A DNA stretch of 64,000 nucleotides, taken from positions 65,699 to 129,698 of the forward strand of contig CAYOTT010000001.1 of assembly GCA_964406965.1 (NCBI GenBank), in the 5' to 3' direction. Of the stretch, positions 6,018-39,278 are shown in pieces; position 1 is the first letter of the stretch; each line of letters opens with the position of its first letter. This stretch comes from an uncultured Desulfurococcales archaeon (GTDB lineage: Archaea > Thermoproteota > Thermoprotei_A > EX4484-217-1). The notes below the pieces were generated by a model, which saw only the letters and a list, made by a program, of their open reading frames with translations, did no database searches and was not told the origin of the DNA. The translations under genes were made by a program, and so were the position numbers.

Positions 6018-7094
6018 ATGGATATGGCATTGAAAACAGTAAGTGAAATGTTAACAGTAAAGAAAGGAGTTGTTAATGGTGAAGTAACCTTAATCTCAGC
6101 TGGACCTTTAAAACTAGGAATTTCATATGGTAACAGAAGCGGAAGCCTTCCATTTCAGTTACCTATTCCGGCAGACGCTAAAGTAAAGGAGTTAACTCTT
6201 GAAATAGCCGTTACGCATAGAAGCGAACCTTACAATGTTAAGTGGAGATTATGGTTTAATGGCTTCCCTCTCACAAGAGAGTTTAAGCCCCAAATAACCG
6301 TTGAAGCGAAGGAGAAATTTTTCAGTAAAGTTCTTTTTGACGTAACTCCAGTTCTACATGCAAAGGGCTTTAAGGAGGAAGCAATGCTTACAGTAAAATA
6401 TGATGGCAATGAAAACTTAATTATAGACCATGCAAACCTCATTGTAACCTATGAAACACCTGAGGCAAAATCTTCTTACATTTACTGTTCTGGAGCATTC
6501 CTTATACCTCCAAATACCTCAGCATCATATAGTTTCGATATTTCCGGGGTCGCAGAAGGCTTCGGTGAATTAAGGGGAATCATTATACTTCCCTCTAAAC
6601 TTTCTAAAGCCGAACTTTTCCTCAACGACAAAAGCATTTATAATGCCATAAACATTACTGGTGCTGAAGAATTTTACATAGAGAATGTTGATTTGAAAGA
6701 GAAAAACACCATAAAATTAGTGCATGAAGCACAAGAAAAAGTTCATCTTAAAGACTACGTTAACCTGTCAACAATGTTAGCCTCAATAACTTATATGCTA
6801 AAGCCTAAACTAGACATAGTTAAAGCGCAACTAGTTGCAGTAGATAATAAGGAGAAAGTTGTAGCGAAAATAAGGAATAATGGATACTCTAAGCCAGATA
6901 AGGCTTGGTTATTGATTATAGACACAGGAGTAGTTGTTTCAAGACAAAAACTTCCCCCGCTAAATCCAGGGGAGGAAATAGAACTCGAAATACCATGTAA
7001 AAAGCAGACGTTAACAAAACATGGTATAGTGTTTATTAGAGCCGTATGGACTAAACTCAGTAGAACATTTACTAGTGAAGTAAGAATAAGGTGA
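6018..7094 (+). CDS. Hypothetical protein.
   Basis: Long uninterrupted ORF in a gene-dense region. No motif recognised. Confidence 0.4.
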   Translation: MDMALKTVSEMLTVKKGVVNGEVTLISAGPLKLGISYGNRSGSLPFQLPIPADAKVKELTLEIAVTHRSEPYNVKWRLWFNGFPLTREFKPQITVEAKEKFFSKVLFDVTPVLHAKGFKEEAMLTVKYDGNENLIIDHANLIVTYETPEAKSSYIYCSGAFLIPPNTSASYSFDISGVAEGFGELRGIIILPSKLSKAELFLNDKSIYNAINITGAEEFYIENVDLKEKNTIKLVHEAQEKVHLKDYVNLSTMLASITYMLKPKLDIVKAQLVAVDNKEKVVAKIRNNGYSKPDKAWLLIIDTGVVVSRQKLPPLNPGEEIELEIPCKKQTLTKHGIVFIRAVWTKLSRTFTSEVRIR

Positions 7095-7757
7095 TTAAGT
7101 AGTTTTTGACGGGCAAAAAGTATTTGCTGGACATTCACTACATAAAGGCTTTCTTGCTTTGCATATTTTTCTACCGAAGCTTATTAATTGAAAATGTGCT
7201 TTAAGTCTATATTTTGCAGGTATATTCTTCTCCAAGCATTCTTTAATTTCTTCATAATTGCTTGAACTAACTAAGCCTATTCTTTTAGCTATTCTTCTAA
7301 TGTGCGTATCTACAGGAATTATAGGTTCATTAAATGAAAAAGCAAGTACCACATCGACTGTTTTAGGACCTATGCCTGGTATTTTGATGAGCATCTCTCT
7401 TAACTTCTCACTGTCTAGTGTTTCATGTAGGCGTTGTTCAAGGAATACTTTAGCTACATTCTTTATGACCTTACTTTTCGCTCTATAAAGCCCTGCAGGT
7501 TTAAGCATGCTCCTTAACGCTTCTTCAGAAGTACTTAATATTTTCTCAGGACTTATTCCTCCAAAAGCTTTCTTTAGATTAATGTAAGCTTTCCAAGTAT
7601 TTTTCCAATTAGTATTTTGGGAGATTATAGTTATTATAAGCTGTTCGAAAACATTTCTGCTTTTCACTTCACCAAGTATCTTATTAACTTCATTACCGAA
7701 ATGCTTTTCACAAAATGTTAAAATAGAAGCCAAAGCGAGAAGGGATTTATTCTGCAC
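7095..7757 (-). CDS. nth: Endonuclease III (HhH-GPD DNA glycosylase/AP lyase with a 4Fe-4S cluster).
   Basis: HhH motif IPGIGPKTVDVVL followed by a conserved Asp; C-terminal C-x6-C-x2-C-x5-C cluster (CKARKPLCSECPANTFC). Confidence 0.85.
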   Translation of the reverse strand: MQNKSLLALASILTFCEKHFGNEVNKILGEVKSRNVFEQLIITIISQNTNWKNTWKAYINLKKAFGGISPEKILSTSEEALRSMLKPAGLYRAKSKVIKNVAKVFLEQRLHETLDSEKLREMLIKIPGIGPKTVDVVLAFSFNEPIIPVDTHIRRIAKRIGLVSSSNYEEIKECLEKNIPAKYRLKAHFQLISFGRKICKARKPLCSECPANTFCPSKTT

Positions 7758-7829
7758 GTATGTTTCCTCCTCTTAGGGATAAAATATTAAAATGTAATTT
7801 TAAAAGCTTCTTTTAGAGGAAGGTGATAA

Positions 7830-8552
7830 GCCTTTACAATATCTTCGAAAGCCAAGTGGAGAAGCAGTGAAAGAATAGCTCTTTCGACTCTTGAAAGTTT
7901 AGGGTATAGAATAGTCGATATTCATAGGAAAGTTACTTTAAAAGGTATAGACGTTGCTGAAGTAGATGCTATAGCTGAAGATCCTAACGGAATTAAATAT
8001 GCCGTAGAAATAAAAGCTGGTAGACTTGATGTTTCAGGTGTAAGGCAAGCATATATTAATGCGAAACTTTTAGGTTTAAAACCTCTTGTAATATGTAAGG
8101 GCTTTGTTGATGAAGCTGCAAAGGCTACTGCTGAAGAATTAGGCGTAAAGGTAATCGAATTAAGTGATCAATTCCTTGTAGATTCCGAGGAATTAGAGAT
8201 TATTGTAAGGGAATCTGTGGAGACAATTATTGACGATTATCTAGCTTCCTTACTAACACCTCCACCTATTCTCGAAGATAGCGATGTAAAAGTTTTAAAA
8301 GCTATAGCTGAAAACCCAACATTAGCCGATGCTGCTGAAAGTTTAAACCTTGACCTTACACAATTTCTGGAAAAAATAAATGTACTTAAGAGAAAAAATA
8401 TTCTTCCAAAAACTAGAAATTATAGAGCTTTAAGGAGAAGAGCCAAAATACTACTTTACAAACTCTTATTTGAAAAAAGAACTAGTGAAGTCCTAAATAA
8501 GCTCGAAGAGGCAATAAATGAAATAAGATCTTTACGTAATTTAGAAAAGTAG
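7830..8552 (+). CDS. PD-(D/E)xK nuclease-like domain fused to a C-terminal winged-HTH. The reading frame is open from 7830, but the first in-frame canonical start is the GTG at 8217. Possible frameshift or pseudogene.
   Basis: In-frame translation upstream of the tracked ORF 8217..8552 reads ...RIVDIHRKVTLKGIDVAEVDAIAEDPNGIKYAVEIKAGRLDVSGVRQAY... (D...EVD...E.K nuclease motif). There is no ATG/GTG/TTG in frame between 7830 and 8217. A GTG at 7823 sits in another frame and terminates at 7868..7870. Confidence 0.45.
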   Translation, partial: AFTISSKAKWRSSERIALSTLESLGYRIVDIHRKVTLKGIDVAEVDAIAEDPNGIKYAVEIKAGRLDVSGVRQAYINAKLLGLKPLVICKGFVDEAAKATAEELGVKVIELSDQFLVDSEELEIIVRESVETIIDDYLASLLTPPPILEDSDVKVLKAIAENPTLADAAESLNLDLTQFLEKINVLKRKNILPKTRNYRALRRRAKILLYKLLFEKRTSEVLNKLEEAINEIRSLRNLEK

Positions 8553-8559
8553 TGTTACA

Positions 8560-9438
8560 ATGTTCCTAGAAGTTTACGAGTTTCATTATAAACAAGTCCC
8601 CCTACTGGCGGGAGCAGCACTCAAGAAGCTAAGTCATGTAAGTAGCTTTGAAACCTACATATCATTAGATCTAGGTCTTTCTCTTTCACGAGTAACTATA
8701 GATGAAACCTGCATTATTTTAGAAGACTACGGGATAAAGCTTCCACTAAGTAAAATATTAGAAAGTAAGGTGAAAGAAAACTCAGTATATGCAATAATAA
8801 ATGAAAACATACAAGAGCTATCGCTAATAACAAAAAACAAATACTATAAGCTTAAGGCACCTTACCTCAATAAAGCACCAACATTGGAAATTAGCGGAAT
8901 ACATATGCATAGAATTAAAGGTATCGACCCTTGGAAGGACTCGTTACTAAAGGTCAAAAAAGCGCGCATTAAAAAAGGAAGCATTGTTTTAGATACATGC
9001 ACTGGTTTGGGATATACAGCTATAGGTGCTTTAAGGTTTGGAGCAAAACATGTTTTTACCGTTGAAAATGATGAAAATGTGTTAGCGCTTAGCCAATATA
9101 ATCCTTGGTCTAAGTTTCTTGAAGACAATAGAATAACCGTACTTTTAGGTGACGTTTTTGAAGTAATTGATTTCTTCCAGGACGGAGTATTTGATAGAAT
9201 AATTCATGACCCCCCAAGATTTTCGCTTGCAGGCCACCTCTACAGTAGAGAATTCTATAGGAAGCTTTACCAGAAACTCAAACCAGGTGGAATACTTTTT
9301 CACTACATAGGTTCACCAGGTCAGAGACGTAGGGTAAATATGGTAAAAGGTGTTATGAATAGACTTAGAGAAGTAGGTTTCTACGTAAAAACAGAACCTA
9401 AAGCCCAAGGGGTTATTGCTTTTAAGCCAAGAATTTAA
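8560..9438 (+). CDS. SAM-dependent methyltransferase with a DPP(R/F) motif (RsmD/N6-N4 amino-methyltransferase-like).
   Basis: Motif I VLDTCTGLGYTA; motif IV DPPRF; order I then IV. Confidence 0.65.
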   Translation: MFLEVYEFHYKQVPLLAGAALKKLSHVSSFETYISLDLGLSLSRVTIDETCIILEDYGIKLPLSKILESKVKENSVYAIINENIQELSLITKNKYYKLKAPYLNKAPTLEISGIHMHRIKGIDPWKDSLLKVKKARIKKGSIVLDTCTGLGYTAIGALRFGAKHVFTVENDENVLALSQYNPWSKFLEDNRITVLLGDVFEVIDFFQDGVFDRIIHDPPRFSLAGHLYSREFYRKLYQKLKPGGILFHYIGSPGQRRRVNMVKGVMNRLREVGFYVKTEPKAQGVIAFKPRI

Positions 9439-9532: not shown

Positions 9533-11104
9533 TTGGACAAGCATGAAGAACAATCAACAATAGATGAGTTAATAGAGGAACTTAAGAGATTAAAGGCTTT
9601 AGCTAAGCAAGGAGGAGGACCTGAGAAGATAAAGCGTCAAAAAATGAAGGATAAACTTACAGCTAGAGAAAGAATAGAAAAACTTCTTGACCCAGGATCT
9701 TTTGTTGAACTCCAACCATTCGTTATACACAGGAGTACGTATTTCGGCATGGATAAGGTAAAGTACTTAGGTGATGGCGTCATTACAGGGTTCGGTACAA
9801 TAAATAGTAGGAAGGTTTACATATTCTCTCAAGACTTCACAGTAATGGGAGGCTCACTTGGCGAAATGCATGCTAAGAAAATAGAGGCATTAATAGATCT
9901 TGCGTTAAAAACCGGTGCACCTCTAATAGGACTTTACGATTCCGGAGGTGCACGAATTCAAGAAGGTGTTGCAGCATTAGACGGTTTTGGTAGAATTTTT
10001 AAAATGAATGTTAAAGCCTCAGGGATAATACCTCAAATATCTCTTATTCTTGGACCTTGTGCTGGAGGAGCTTCTTATTCCCCATCTCTTACAGATTTCA
10101 TAATAATGGTTAAGAAAATATCCTACATGTTCATAACAGGGCCTCAAGTTGTAAAAGCTGTAACAGGCGAGGAAGTCACGTTTGAAGAGCTAGGAGGAGC
10201 TGAAGTACATGCTTCAAGAAGCGGTGTAGCTCATTTTATTACGGAAACAGAAGAAGAAGCTTTTGAAATAGTTAGGGAGCTTCTATCCTATATACCATCG
10301 AATAATATGGAGGAACCACCTTATGTTGAGACAGACGATCCTGTTGAAAGAGAGAGTGACGAGTTAAACAACATAGTCCCTACTGACCCTTCAGAACCAT
10401 ATGATGTCAGAGACGTTATATTTAGAATAGTGGATGACGGTAAATTCCTTGAAGTACATAAAGATTATGCACTAAATATTGTAATAGGCTTTGGTAGATT
10501 TGGAGGTTATTCAACATGCATTGTCGCTAATCAGCCAAAATATTTAGCTGGCGTTCTTGATATAGATGCTTCAGCAAAAGCAGCTCGCTTCATAAGATTT
10601 TGCGATTCATTCAACATACCTATATTGATGCTTGTAGATGTACCAGGTTACATGCCCGGAATAGATCAAGAGCATGGTGGAATAATAAAGCATGGTGCAA
10701 AACTTGTTTACGCGTATGCTGAAGCCACTGTACCTAAAGTAACTGTTGTTCTCAGAAAAGCATATGGTGGCGCCTATATTGCCATGGGTTCAAAGAGTCT
10801 GGGGGCAGATATTGTTTTAGCATGGCCTACAGCGGAAATAGCTGTTATGGGACCTGAAGGTGCTGTTAAAATAATTTTCAAAAAGGAACTCAAGGCTTCA
10901 GAACATCCGGAGGAACTCTTTAAGAAAAGATTAAGAGAGTATAGAAGTGTGTTTGCTAATCCTTATAGGGCAGCTGAACTAGGCCTAATAGACGATGTAA
11001 TAGAGCCTAGAAGAACCCGACCTATGGTGATTAAAGCATTTGAAGCTCTTAGAAATAAGAGGGAAATTAAGCTTCCAAGAAAACACGGCAATATACCGCT
11101 TTAA
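9533..11104 (+). CDS. pccB: Acetyl-/propionyl-CoA carboxylase carboxyltransferase subunit (beta).
   Basis: Carboxyltransferase domain throughout (GGARIQEG, GPCAGGASY, AWPTAEIAVMGPEGA); TTG start. Confidence 0.9.
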   Translation: MDKHEEQSTIDELIEELKRLKALAKQGGGPEKIKRQKMKDKLTARERIEKLLDPGSFVELQPFVIHRSTYFGMDKVKYLGDGVITGFGTINSRKVYIFSQDFTVMGGSLGEMHAKKIEALIDLALKTGAPLIGLYDSGGARIQEGVAALDGFGRIFKMNVKASGIIPQISLILGPCAGGASYSPSLTDFIIMVKKISYMFITGPQVVKAVTGEEVTFEELGGAEVHASRSGVAHFITETEEEAFEIVRELLSYIPSNNMEEPPYVETDDPVERESDELNNIVPTDPSEPYDVRDVIFRIVDDGKFLEVHKDYALNIVIGFGRFGGYSTCIVANQPKYLAGVLDIDASAKAARFIRFCDSFNIPILMLVDVPGYMPGIDQEHGGIIKHGAKLVYAYAEATVPKVTVVLRKAYGGAYIAMGSKSLGADIVLAWPTAEIAVMGPEGAVKIIFKKELKASEHPEELFKKRLREYRSVFANPYRAAELGLIDDVIEPRRTRPMVIKAFEALRNKREIKLPRKHGNIPL

Positions 11105-11112
11105 ACTAGAAG

Positions 11113-11652
11113 CTAGGATGATGGGTTTATTCTTATTAGAAGCTGATTCTTTTTTACAACATTCCCCTCCCTTATAGCTACCTCCTCAACAATGCCGTCA
11201 TATTGCGACTTTATCTCATTTAACATTTTCATAGATTCCATTATTAGAAGTGTTTGACCTTTATGTACTTTATCGCCAACCTTCACTTTTACTGAAATTA
11301 TCTTTCCACTTAAAGGAGCCCTTATTTCGCCTCTTTCTACTTTAGAGTTATCATTGTTCTTAAGTAAAAAATCGCTTAAGTCATTAACTAAAGTTTTCGT
11401 TATTAAATGCTCACTAATAGAAATTTTTAAAGGCACTCCATTAACGTAGGTTAAGTTTGCTTCCGGATCGATAACAACAACATATTTCTTGCCATCAATT
11501 TCTACTTCTACTCTTGAATCGTCAGAATACAGTATTTTAGCCTTAATTTTCCCTAGTTTATCATCGGTAATTACGTATTCTTTATTGTCGATATTCTTTT
11601 CTATTTCAAACGAAACCTCTTCATCAAATCCTTTAGCTACTATTTTACGCAT
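11113..11652 (-). CDS. accB: Biotin carboxyl carrier protein.
   Basis: C-terminal biotinyl domain with the EAMKM-type motif (LIMESMKMLNEI). Confidence 0.85.
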   Translation of the reverse strand: MRKIVAKGFDEEVSFEIEKNIDNKEYVITDDKLGKIKAKILYSDDSRVEVEIDGKKYVVVIDPEANLTYVNGVPLKISISEHLITKTLVNDLSDFLLKNNDNSKVERGEIRAPLSGKIISVKVKVGDKVHKGQTLLIMESMKMLNEIKSQYDGIVEEVAIREGNVVKKNQLLIRINPSS

Positions 11653-38677: not shown

Positions 38678-38992
38678 CTAAGTTGATGAGGCTATGTACT
38701 TTATTAAAGCAAAAATGCTTGTTCCTACAGCTAGCCAGAATGCACCTAAAATAGCATCTTCAACTATGTCCTGTCCAAACCTTTTTACTCTATATATTGG
38801 AATAGGTGAGCCCTTTAGAAGCCACCCAATGGCCCATGAAAGCATGAAGAGAGCCCATGCTGCAATAACTACTCTGTTAGTTAAATCATTGATTAGCGCT
38901 TCTATATCCACAACTATCCCCCCTAAGAATATATTGCTTTTTAAAAGGCTTTTTTGGGCTTTTAAAAAGCAATTATTTAAGATGATTCTCAA
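38678..38992 (-). CDS. Small membrane protein.
   Basis: 104 aa, two or three hydrophobic helices. Confidence 0.4.
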   Translation of the reverse strand: MRIILNNCFLKAQKSLLKSNIFLGGIVVDIEALINDLTNRVVIAAWALFMLSWAIGWLLKGSPIPIYRVKRFGQDIVEDAILGAFWLAVGTSIFALIKYIASST

Positions 38993-39029
38993 AATACTTT
39001 TATAGTTGCTACTACGGTAATACTTTTGG

Positions 39030-39278
39030 GTGATAATTCTTTTGAGTGTATTATGTCTTAACGATACAGTTGTTGTGACTTTTAAAGTAAGACGTGAACT
39101 TCTCGATAGACTTGATGAATTAGTAAAGAATGGATACTTTTCCAGTAGAAGTGAAGCAATAAGAACAGCAATAATAATGTTAATAAATAGTTATAGTAAA
39201 GGAGAAGGAAATGGGGAAAAACTTAGTAAAAGAAATTTAAAGGAGATTTTTGGTCCTAGACTTACTGTTTTAGGCTAA
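39030..39278 (+). CDS. Ribbon-helix-helix (CopG-like) protein; the true start is probably internal (GTG near 39075).
   Basis: VVVTFKVRRELLDRLDELVKNGYFSSRSEAIRTAIIMLI, paralogous to the product of 14519..14680. Confidence 0.5.
   Translation: MIILLSVLCLNDTVVVTFKVRRELLDRLDELVKNGYFSSRSEAIRTAIIMLINSYSKGEGNGEKLSKRNLKEIFGPRLTVLG

Follow-up and report, generated by a model that had tools for sequence, protein, structure and literature searches.

Non-canonical translation initiation is a known phenomenon that is poorly documented in Archaea. The bacterial infC gene starts with AUU and is autoregulated through IF3, and +1 slippery sites are found at CUU-UGA in prfB, with an upstream Shine-Dalgarno (SD) element, and at CUU-AGG-C in yeast Ty1. 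In Escherichia coli CAT reporters, an AUA start yielded 238 CAT units versus 7314 for AUG, or about 3% (Arora et al. 2013, PMC3643588). The DNA analyzed here is a 64-kb stretch of contig CAYOTT010000001.1 (hereafter the window; 35% G+C) from a low-GC uncultured Desulfurococcales archaeon. We describe in it a gene for a predicted PD-(D/E)xK nuclease fused to a helix-turn-helix (HTH) domain, which lacks a canonical start codon (ATG, GTG or TTG) at its 5′ end and is followed by the gene of a methyltransferase from an already known family. Like infC and the E. coli AUA reporters, this gene has a near-cognate AUN codon behind a good SD element, shared across species, and low expression is expected of it; unlike infC, it belongs to an archaeal initiation system (aIF1/aIF1A/aIF2), its codon would be AUA rather than AUU, and no regulatory factor is known for it.

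Two stop codons, TGA (7824 to 7826) and TAA (7827 to 7829), directly precede the nuclease frame, which is open from 7830 to a TAG at 8550 to 8552. Its translation reads AFTISSKAKWRSSERIAL...IDVAEVDAIAEDPNGIKYAVEIKAG...RQAY..., with the nuclease core reading AFTISSKAKWRSSERIALSTLESLGYRIVDIHRKVTLKGIDVAEVDAIAEDPNGIKYAVEIKAG...RQAY... and a helical, HTH-containing C-terminal part after it. Between 7830 and the GTG at 8217 there is no in-frame ATG, GTG or TTG, and at the codon frequencies of this genome the probability of a 126-codon run without a canonical start codon is about 0.014. The open reading frame (ORF) list shows just 8217..8552 because this GTG is the first canonical start codon in the frame. 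The GTG at 7823 is in a different frame, and its product, MISLYNIFESQVEKQ, ends at the TGA at 7868 to 7870. Thus, the initial annotation, in which the frame was open back to 7830 with no start before 8217 and GTG 7823 was out of frame and stopped at 7868, was confirmed on the sequence.

The locus was compared at the DNA level with 22 loci of close relatives (L001 to L022) in assemblies of ENA, JGI, Logan and NCBI; among the relatives with a name, an uncultured Desulfurococcales metagenome-assembled genome (MAG) came closest, at 94% identity. The window clade (74 to 94% protein identity) comprises eight distinct leader sequences (the window; L001/11/13; L002/3/16; L004/5; L012; L014/15/17/18; L019; L020), L021 and L022 form a sister clade, and further clades are represented by L006, L009 and L010; intermediate homologues such as P0008, P0012, P0025 and P0026 were left out of the leader comparison. 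An in-frame ATG, GTG or TTG was missing from all eight window-clade leaders, across independent ENA, JGI, Logan and NCBI assemblies, which rules out a sequencing or assembly error as the cause; the frameshift by sequencing error considered initially thus did not survive comparison with the orthologous loci. In the window clade, the frame opens 9 to 10 codons before a conserved Trp, and the next canonical start lies 25 to 120 codons past it at lineage-specific positions (+120 in the window; +25, +27, +49, +73 or +77 in relatives). L021 and L022 are likewise without a canonical start, their frame opening at AAT-ATA right after a TGA. For all start-less relatives (P0001, P0005 to P0007, P0022, P0027 and P0049), truncated proteins of 151 to 206 aa have been called.

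Selection was estimated by the Nei-Gojobori method, with each relative compared to the window (11 comparisons) and the N-terminal half taken from the ATA codon at 7839 to 8216. The dN/dS values of this half were 0.014 to 0.099, and its synonymous divergence (pS) was 0.6 to 0.77, near saturation, in all but the closest relative. The C-terminal half gave dN/dS values of 0.07 to 0.28, so that the N-terminal half was the tighter one in 10 of the 11 comparisons, and the N-terminal half was free of stops and frameshifts in 12 lineages. These results indicated that the nuclease domain is translated in all these organisms, and the dN/dS values ruled out a pseudogene. Thus, the nuclease gene is intact, with strong purifying selection acting on precisely the part where the canonical start is missing.

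The leader contains a predicted SD element that reads GGAAGGTGAT in the window, TGAGGTGAT in L004 and L012, and TGAGGTGGT in L014 and L019. In relatives, up to 9 nt of it are complementary to the crenarchaeal 16S rRNA 3′ end (anti-SD sequence from general knowledge), and the A/G variation within it preserves A-U or G-U pairing. The out-of-frame GTG 7823 is the center of this element. The same GGTG/GAGGTG motifs precede many other window genes; most window SDs are located 2 to 7 nt from the start, with a modal distance of 4 to 6 nt, and for the two strongest (TGAGGTG), which precede ATG 17256 and ATG 29495, the distance to the ATG is 10 to 12 nt.

Column-by-column comparison of the eight leaders revealed that the nuclease-frame codons from 7824 to 7835 are stops or carry non-synonymous changes (A/V/G/D/I; F/L), versus purely synonymous changes in 10 of the 11 variable codons from 7836 on (ACA/ACC, TCG/TCA, AAA/AAG, AAG/AAA, AGA/AGG and AGC/AGT, among others). 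The two other frames show non-synonymous changes and stops across the eight leaders. This switch to synonymous-only variation indicated that decoding in the nuclease frame begins at 7836 or 7839. Together with the conserved start-less state, the constraint from 7836 on lends support to non-standard initiation, which the initial annotation had named as one possibility.

Within 7830 to 7853, the ATA at 7839 is the sole near-cognate codon in the frame, and its invariance extends over 23 sequences, i.e., the window plus the 22 close-relative loci. The in-frame stop precedes it by 3 to 4 codons in the window clade and by a single codon in L021 and L022. The GGTG-to-ATA distance is 7 nt in L009, 8 nt in L006 and L021, 12 nt in L010 and 13 nt in the window clade; expressed as SD-to-ATA spacing, this is 5 to 6 nt in L006, L009 and L021 and an atypical 10 to 11 nt in L010 and the window clade. 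Indels occur upstream of the ATA and not downstream, as expected for an untranslated spacer between the SD and the ATA. The GTG embedded in the SD is in frame in L010, needs a +1 shift in the window clade, and needs a −1 shift in L006 and L021. Since the distance varies by clade, no single frameshift mechanism fits all clades, whereas ATA initiation does.

Normally started homologues begin 6 to 8 residues before the Trp (MSTQRRW, MVSPKRRW, MTISAKRKW and MSISPKTKW), as would a protein started at the ATA. The start region reads GTG-AGT-ATT (M-S-I) in Desulfurococcus amylolyticus and TTG-AGC-ATA in L009. The homologue N-termini and the D. amylolyticus sequence place the ancestral start two codons before the Ile. 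This position now reads TTT in the window and L001, TTA in the remaining six of the eight distinct window-clade leaders and in L010, CGA in L006, TTG in L009 and TGA in L021.

Table 1. Features of the start-less nuclease gene and its surroundings (window coordinates)
Feature	Coordinates	Strand	Basis or remark
Intergenic A/T-rich DNA containing a pair of TATA-like boxes, ATAAAATATTAAAA and TTTTAAAAGC	7779..7807	.	Read from sequence
Shine-Dalgarno element GGAAGGTGAT	7818..7827	+	Kept in all clades
Putative ancestral start position, decayed	7833..7835	+	Aligns with M of homologues beginning M-T-I-S or M-S-I-S
ATA, proposed non-canonical initiation codon	7839..7841	+	Invariant, window and L001 to L022
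Nuclease-HTH gene, 237 codons from ATA	7839..8552	+	dN/dS, family alignment, structure model
Catalytic-core sites: E41/D43; E57-x-K59; RQAY	7959-7967; 8007-8015; 8043-8054	+	PD-(D/E)xK domain, N-terminal
First in-frame canonical start, GTG	8217..8219	+	ORF-caller artefact, not conserved
Junction from nuclease stop to methyltransferase ATG, 7 nt	8553..8559	+	Without evident SD
Putative 16S rRNA m4,2C synthase relative, TK2045 family, COG2521/arCOG00054	8560..9438	+	PDB 8VYD match
Motif I VLDTCTGLG; catalytic DPPR (residues 217-220)	8986-9012; 9208-9219	+	Inside methyltransferase ORF

From these sequence comparisons, we favor, with moderate confidence, conserved non-canonical initiation at AUA 7839. 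We read the nuclease-HTH gene (7839 to 8552) and the methyltransferase gene (8560 to 9438) as a two-gene operon, in which the ancestral start two codons upstream of the conserved Ile has decayed to TTT/TTA and the Ile codon AUA would have taken over initiation. The initiator tRNA would read AUA with a third-position mismatch, and the SD GGTGAT, 11 nt upstream (5 to 6 nt in the sister clade), would position initiation there. Because AUA reaches about 3% of AUG in E. coli, low expression would be expected, i.e., the weak start would yield the nuclease-HTH protein in small amounts, and translational coupling would keep methyltransferase output low as well.

Several points weigh against initiation at AUA 7839. 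In the window clade, the SD is spaced 5 nt, an ideal value, from the decayed position 7833 and 11 nt from the ATA, the modal distance being 4 to 6 nt. The invariance of the ATA is weak evidence alone, as the Ile is also kept in homologues with a canonical start and ATA accounts for about 83% of the codons at other conserved Ile positions. The invariant CTT at 7832 to 7834 and the synonymous ACA/ACC variation at 7836 are left unexplained by an ATA start and fit a +1 frameshift. A literature search for AUA-initiated archaeal genes found no documented case, and S. solfataricus aIF1 has been reported to discriminate against non-canonical starts; in ribosome profiling of H. volcanii, about 30% of the putative alternative starts were near-cognate and were left unanalyzed there.

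The main rival of the AUA start, which we consider unlikely, is a programmed +1 frameshift: translation would start at GTG 7823 (GTG ATA AGC CTT), the peptidyl-tRNA-Leu would slip at CUU-U/A, and decoding would resume at ACA 7836, giving M-I-S-L-T-I-S-S-K-A-K-W.... As in prfB and Ty1, the window offers a CUU-U/A heptamer-like site, and the +1 direction joins GTG 7823 to the nuclease frame. The CTT is invariant in the eight window-clade leaders, where the skipped base is T or A and the next codon is ACA or ACC, and an SD-like GGTGAT resembling the prfB stimulator lies 4 nt before the CUU. The product M-[IVM]-x-L-T-I-S would equal the in-frame GTG product of L010, M-V-K-L-S-I-S, in length and pattern, and a 1-nt insertion separates the window clade from L010 in exactly this stretch. 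Unlike in prfB and Ty1, however, the A site has neither a stop nor a rare codon (TAC/AAC, both ordinary, with no obvious rarity), the putative start is located inside the SD, and the site is not common to the sister clade. This GTG, being the center of a 9-nt anti-SD match in L004 and L012, has no SD of its own, and L004 and L005, in which 15 nt are inserted between TATA box and GGTG, speak against a leaderless start at it. Codons 2 and 3 of the GTG frame (f0) are without coding constraint, and the start-less L021 and L022 would need another shift, in another sequence, from a TTG or GTG without proper spacing. Keyword passages of one review contained no archaeal case of +1 programmed frameshifting. 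A start at another non-canonical codon of the nuclease frame, either 7833 (UUU here, UUA in relatives) or, as a second candidate, ACA 7836, appears improbable to us. Position 7833 has the SD spacing of 5 nt that is modal for the genome, TTA occupies it in 6 of the 8 window-clade leaders and in L010, the Thr codon behind it varies synonymously, and homologues begin M-T-I-S; against this, UUU and UUA would pair with the initiator anticodon at one position only, and the codon is not conserved: window-clade members have TTT or TTA, L006 has CGA, and L021 and L022 have a stop, TGA.

An internal canonical start, for example GTG 8217, could give an HTH-only product and leave the nuclease part as an untranslated relic, and ORF callers do list exactly such truncated products. 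We regard this as very improbable, given that the N-terminal half has dN/dS of 0.01 to 0.10, with synonymous sites at saturation, and is clear of stops and frameshifts in 12 lineages, that the catalytic residues are invariant, and that the first internal canonical start sits at widely differing positions in each lineage. We give next to no credence to a decaying restriction-modification (R-M) system or an orphan DNA methyltransferase with an inactivated nuclease, the degenerate pair suggested initially, or to a sequencing or assembly frameshift. The weak Mrr_cat match of the nuclease, the D-P-P motif of the methyltransferase, and partial hits of the latter on mad2 (E = 5e-19) and on a model for Type II MTases (E = 1e-5) speak for such a system; opposed to them are a nearly full-length alignment to 8VYD at E = 4e-62, purifying selection on the nuclease, and the same arrangement in independent assemblies. 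No membership in a DNA methyltransferase family (N6A, N4C or 5mC) was found (8VYD at E = 3.9e-62 versus N6_N4_Mtase at E = 0.05). Nor do linkage or mobility point to an R-M system, as the pair is flanked by housekeeping genes whose order is conserved and the nuclease-methyltransferase adjacency is confined to one clade. In D. amylolyticus, the nuclease homologue (47% identity) shares an overlap with the end of cysS, and a radical-SAM gene comes after it; in L024, a HAD hydrolase gene comes next. These neighbors are unrelated genes. Thus, the locus is not a defense or restriction-modification system.

Additional mechanisms were considered for the leader and rejected. RNAalifold on the leaders gave no convincing conserved structure (−11.7 kcal/mol, almost no covariation), and Rfam and tRNA scans of the window detected no known RNA families or tRNAs. 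RNA structure as a frameshift stimulator was dismissed since the sole stable hairpin (about 7868 to 7886) lies about 34 nt past the slip site, inside conserved coding sequence. This hairpin, GAAAGA-ATAGC-TCTTTC at 7866 to 7886, falls within a conserved SERIAL coding stretch and is predicted in all eight leaders, with one compensatory change. Transcriptional slippage was excluded by the absence of homopolymer runs longer than 4 nt between 7823 and 7857. Several relatives (L002 447-458, L004 1325-1333 and L012/L014 2486-2497) carry a nuclease-frame ATG in or just before the SD, followed by one or two codons and a stop (ATG AGG TGA; ATG GGG TGG TAA), with GTG instead in the window, L001 and L020. 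Readthrough of such an in-frame mini-ORF (ATG-AGG-TGA) does not account for the locus, as it is present in L002, L004, L012, L014 and L019 and absent in the window, L001 and L020; the mini-ORF is probably a by-product of the SD sequence.

The protein, numbered here from the ATA codon, has an N-terminal PD-(D/E)xK domain and a C-terminal HTH plus a long helix. Pfam gave a borderline match to Mrr_cat (E = 2e-4), with UPF0102/YraN below threshold, and a sequence search against the PDB returned zero matches. We collected 86 homologues of 210 to 296 aa, from Desulfurococcaceae, Ignisphaera, Pyrolobus, Hyperthermus and Sulfolobales MAGs among others; those named by organism all belong to Thermoprotei except for one Promethearchaeota MAG. 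In an alignment of 50 homologues, no variation was seen at E41, D43, E57 and K59 and next to none at Q70. From this alignment, AlphaFold2 produced a model with a mean pLDDT of 92.8 and a core with the element order H-E-E-E-H-E; in Foldseek, its N-terminal domain matched the NucS/EndoMS nuclease domain (E = 3e-6 to 1e-5), and its C-terminal part resembled FixJ/LuxR- or MarR-type HTH domains. These data support the initial assignment of a PD-(D/E)xK core followed by an HTH, i.e., a predicted nuclease fused to an HTH, and the intact catalytic residues suggest that the nuclease domain is probably active. The N-terminal domain shares the fold of the C-terminal nuclease domain of NucS/EndoMS, including D...ExK and QxxxY; unlike NucS, the protein is without the NucS N-terminal domain, carries the HTH and long helix at its C terminus instead, and shows 16 to 19% identity. 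The source names ("predicted RecB family endonuclease," "recombinase RecB" and "restriction endonuclease") are the basis on which the family would be assigned to COG4998, a group placed with UPF0102 (Steczkiewicz et al. 2012, PMC3424549).

For the downstream methyltransferase, whose VLDTCTGLG and DPPR motifs had been recognized correctly at the outset, a PDB search placed 8VYD far above all else (E = 3.9e-62; residues 64-291 versus 54-281, envelope 17-282), and the block IIHDPPRFSLAGHLYS, which contains the DPPR catalytic motif, is identical in the two proteins. General libraries gave the picture of an unspecialized class I methyltransferase, with Spermine_synth (1e-7), the RsmD-like Cons_hypoth95 (8e-6) and, below threshold, N6_N4_Mtase (0.05). 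8VYD is the Thermococcus kodakarensis protein TK2045, whose deletion removes N4,N4-dimethylcytidine at C918 in the loop of 16S helix 31 (Fluke et al. 2024, PMC11551388). Assembled ribosomes are a substrate of the recombinant enzyme, the DPPR motif is catalytic (D205 in TK2045), and the modified cytidine adjoins the P-site tRNA (PMC11551388). The window protein resembles TK2045 in length (292 versus 290 aa) and in having the extra N-terminal domain; it differs in its host (Thermoprotei, not Thermococci), in its first ~60 residues, which are unaligned in phmmer, and in that its activity and target nucleotide are putative. By close homology, the methyltransferase is assigned as an rRNA-modifying enzyme, not a DNA methyltransferase. 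Thus, an RNA methyltransferase beside an unrelated Mrr/NucS-like nuclease-regulator, offered initially as the alternative to an R-M pair, agrees with the 8VYD match and with the two genes being unlinked outside the clade. As counter-evidence to an R-M pair, the initial annotation had named a tRNA/rRNA methyltransferase together with nuclease orthologs that start normally; the comparison bore out the former and not the latter, since close relatives also lack a normal start, so that there is no sequencing error. Across 11 loci, the junction of nuclease stop and methyltransferase ATG measures −11 to +10 nt; this tight junction and the absence of an evident SD make translational coupling of the methyltransferase to the nuclease gene likely.

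The catalytic domain also has a partial match to the PADLOC mad2 model at profile positions 275-421 of 492, and the match to the Type II MTase model spans 32 residues. The mad2 match reflects the shared methyltransferase fold only. Since mad2 is a model of a methylation-associated defense system, this suggests that a component of that system shares its fold with an rRNA methyltransferase.

The AUA start could, by analogy, act as a sensor of helix-31 methylation in a feedback loop with the coupled methyltransferase gene, an idea that we consider doubtful and put forward as speculation. Under-methylated ribosomes would accept AUA more readily, translate the operon more, and yield more methyltransferase, and fully methylated ribosomes would shut the operon down, giving an infC-like homeostatic loop for rRNA modification. 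Such a loop would rest on the dependence of AUA recognition on P-site stringency at the third codon position and on the helix-31 cytidine touching the P-site tRNA at its anticodon loop. We rate the idea low because the gene pairing occurs in one clade, the TK2045-type position presumably corresponds to E. coli 967 rather than 966, and the archaeal effect is argued by analogy. In E. coli lacking m2G966 of helix 31 (RsmD), initiation at AUA specifically increased about 2-fold, with little effect from the loss of m5C967 (RsmB) (PMC3643588); the abstract of that study gives a 2- to 3.6-fold rise across AUA, CAC and CAU upon m2G966 loss (Arora et al. 2013, PMC3643588). If true, this would be the first such feedback loop in archaea.

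Start-codon selection by archaeal aIF1/aIF2 is considered stringent, and a start-less state kept across lineages whose synonymous sites are saturated would offer a rare comparative example of near-cognate AUA initiation being obligatory in Archaea; the alternative, programmed +1 frameshifting, would be even rarer. The link to a helix-31 rRNA methyltransferase gene could bear on how P-site rRNA modifications tune start-codon fidelity. For annotation, pipelines cut the protein to 151 to 206 residues, or to a 111-residue HTH fragment in the window, so that the nuclease domain is lost clade-wide in Desulfurococcales.

Over its whole length, the nuclease coding sequence (CDS) contains one ATG, GTG or TTG in 236 codons, versus 7.8 expected from 41 other window genes. 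The CDS is ATG-free in 7 of 8 window-clade lineages and has 1 to 4 ATG codons in clades or homologues that keep, or possibly keep, a canonical start. This depletion may reflect selection against competing internal starts under a weak real start, or a Met-poor family.

When stop-to-stop frames of at least 90 codons were scanned, the nuclease frame was the sole convincing gene-sized one without a canonical start near its 5′ end. At a cutoff of 150 codons, the 64 kb contained one other frame, 38678-39190 on the minus strand, that had no such start. It comprises 170 codons with the first canonical start at codon 66 and overlaps a 107-codon plus-strand frame (38682-39005), and neither of the two frames had a Pfam match. 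It may be a shadow frame or another gene whose start is unusual. The idea that odd start codons are used throughout the genome was rejected, as, this doubtful frame aside, every other window ORF of 150 codons or more starts canonically near its 5′ end.

The gene order at the locus is endonuclease III (7095-7757, minus strand), nuclease-HTH, methyltransferase, acyl-CoA carboxylase carboxyltransferase, and a biotinyl protein on the opposite strand. The TATA-like boxes, located between the divergent endonuclease III and nuclease genes, are candidate divergent archaeal promoters as judged from sequence, and TTTAAAAGC is kept in all window-clade loci. Downstream, the carboxyltransferase gene (9533-11104, plus; Carboxyl_trans E = 1e-197) and the convergent biotinyl/lipoyl gene (11113-11652, minus) follow the nuclease-methyltransferase pair in every relative, e.g., L001, L004, L006 and L010, which anchors the orthology. 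In L006 (2318-2872), L009 (2-502), L010 (133-2832) and L021 (1-1043), endonuclease III and the nuclease are separated by a gene for a P-type cation ATPase, either complete or in fragments; this insertion in the sister clades changes the divergent promoter region, while the SD-ATA arrangement stays. Beyond endonuclease III, positions 6018-7094 encode a 358-aa protein with sub-threshold matches to DUF3344 and CARDB, which has an unannotated positional counterpart of 356 to 360 aa in L001 and L006.

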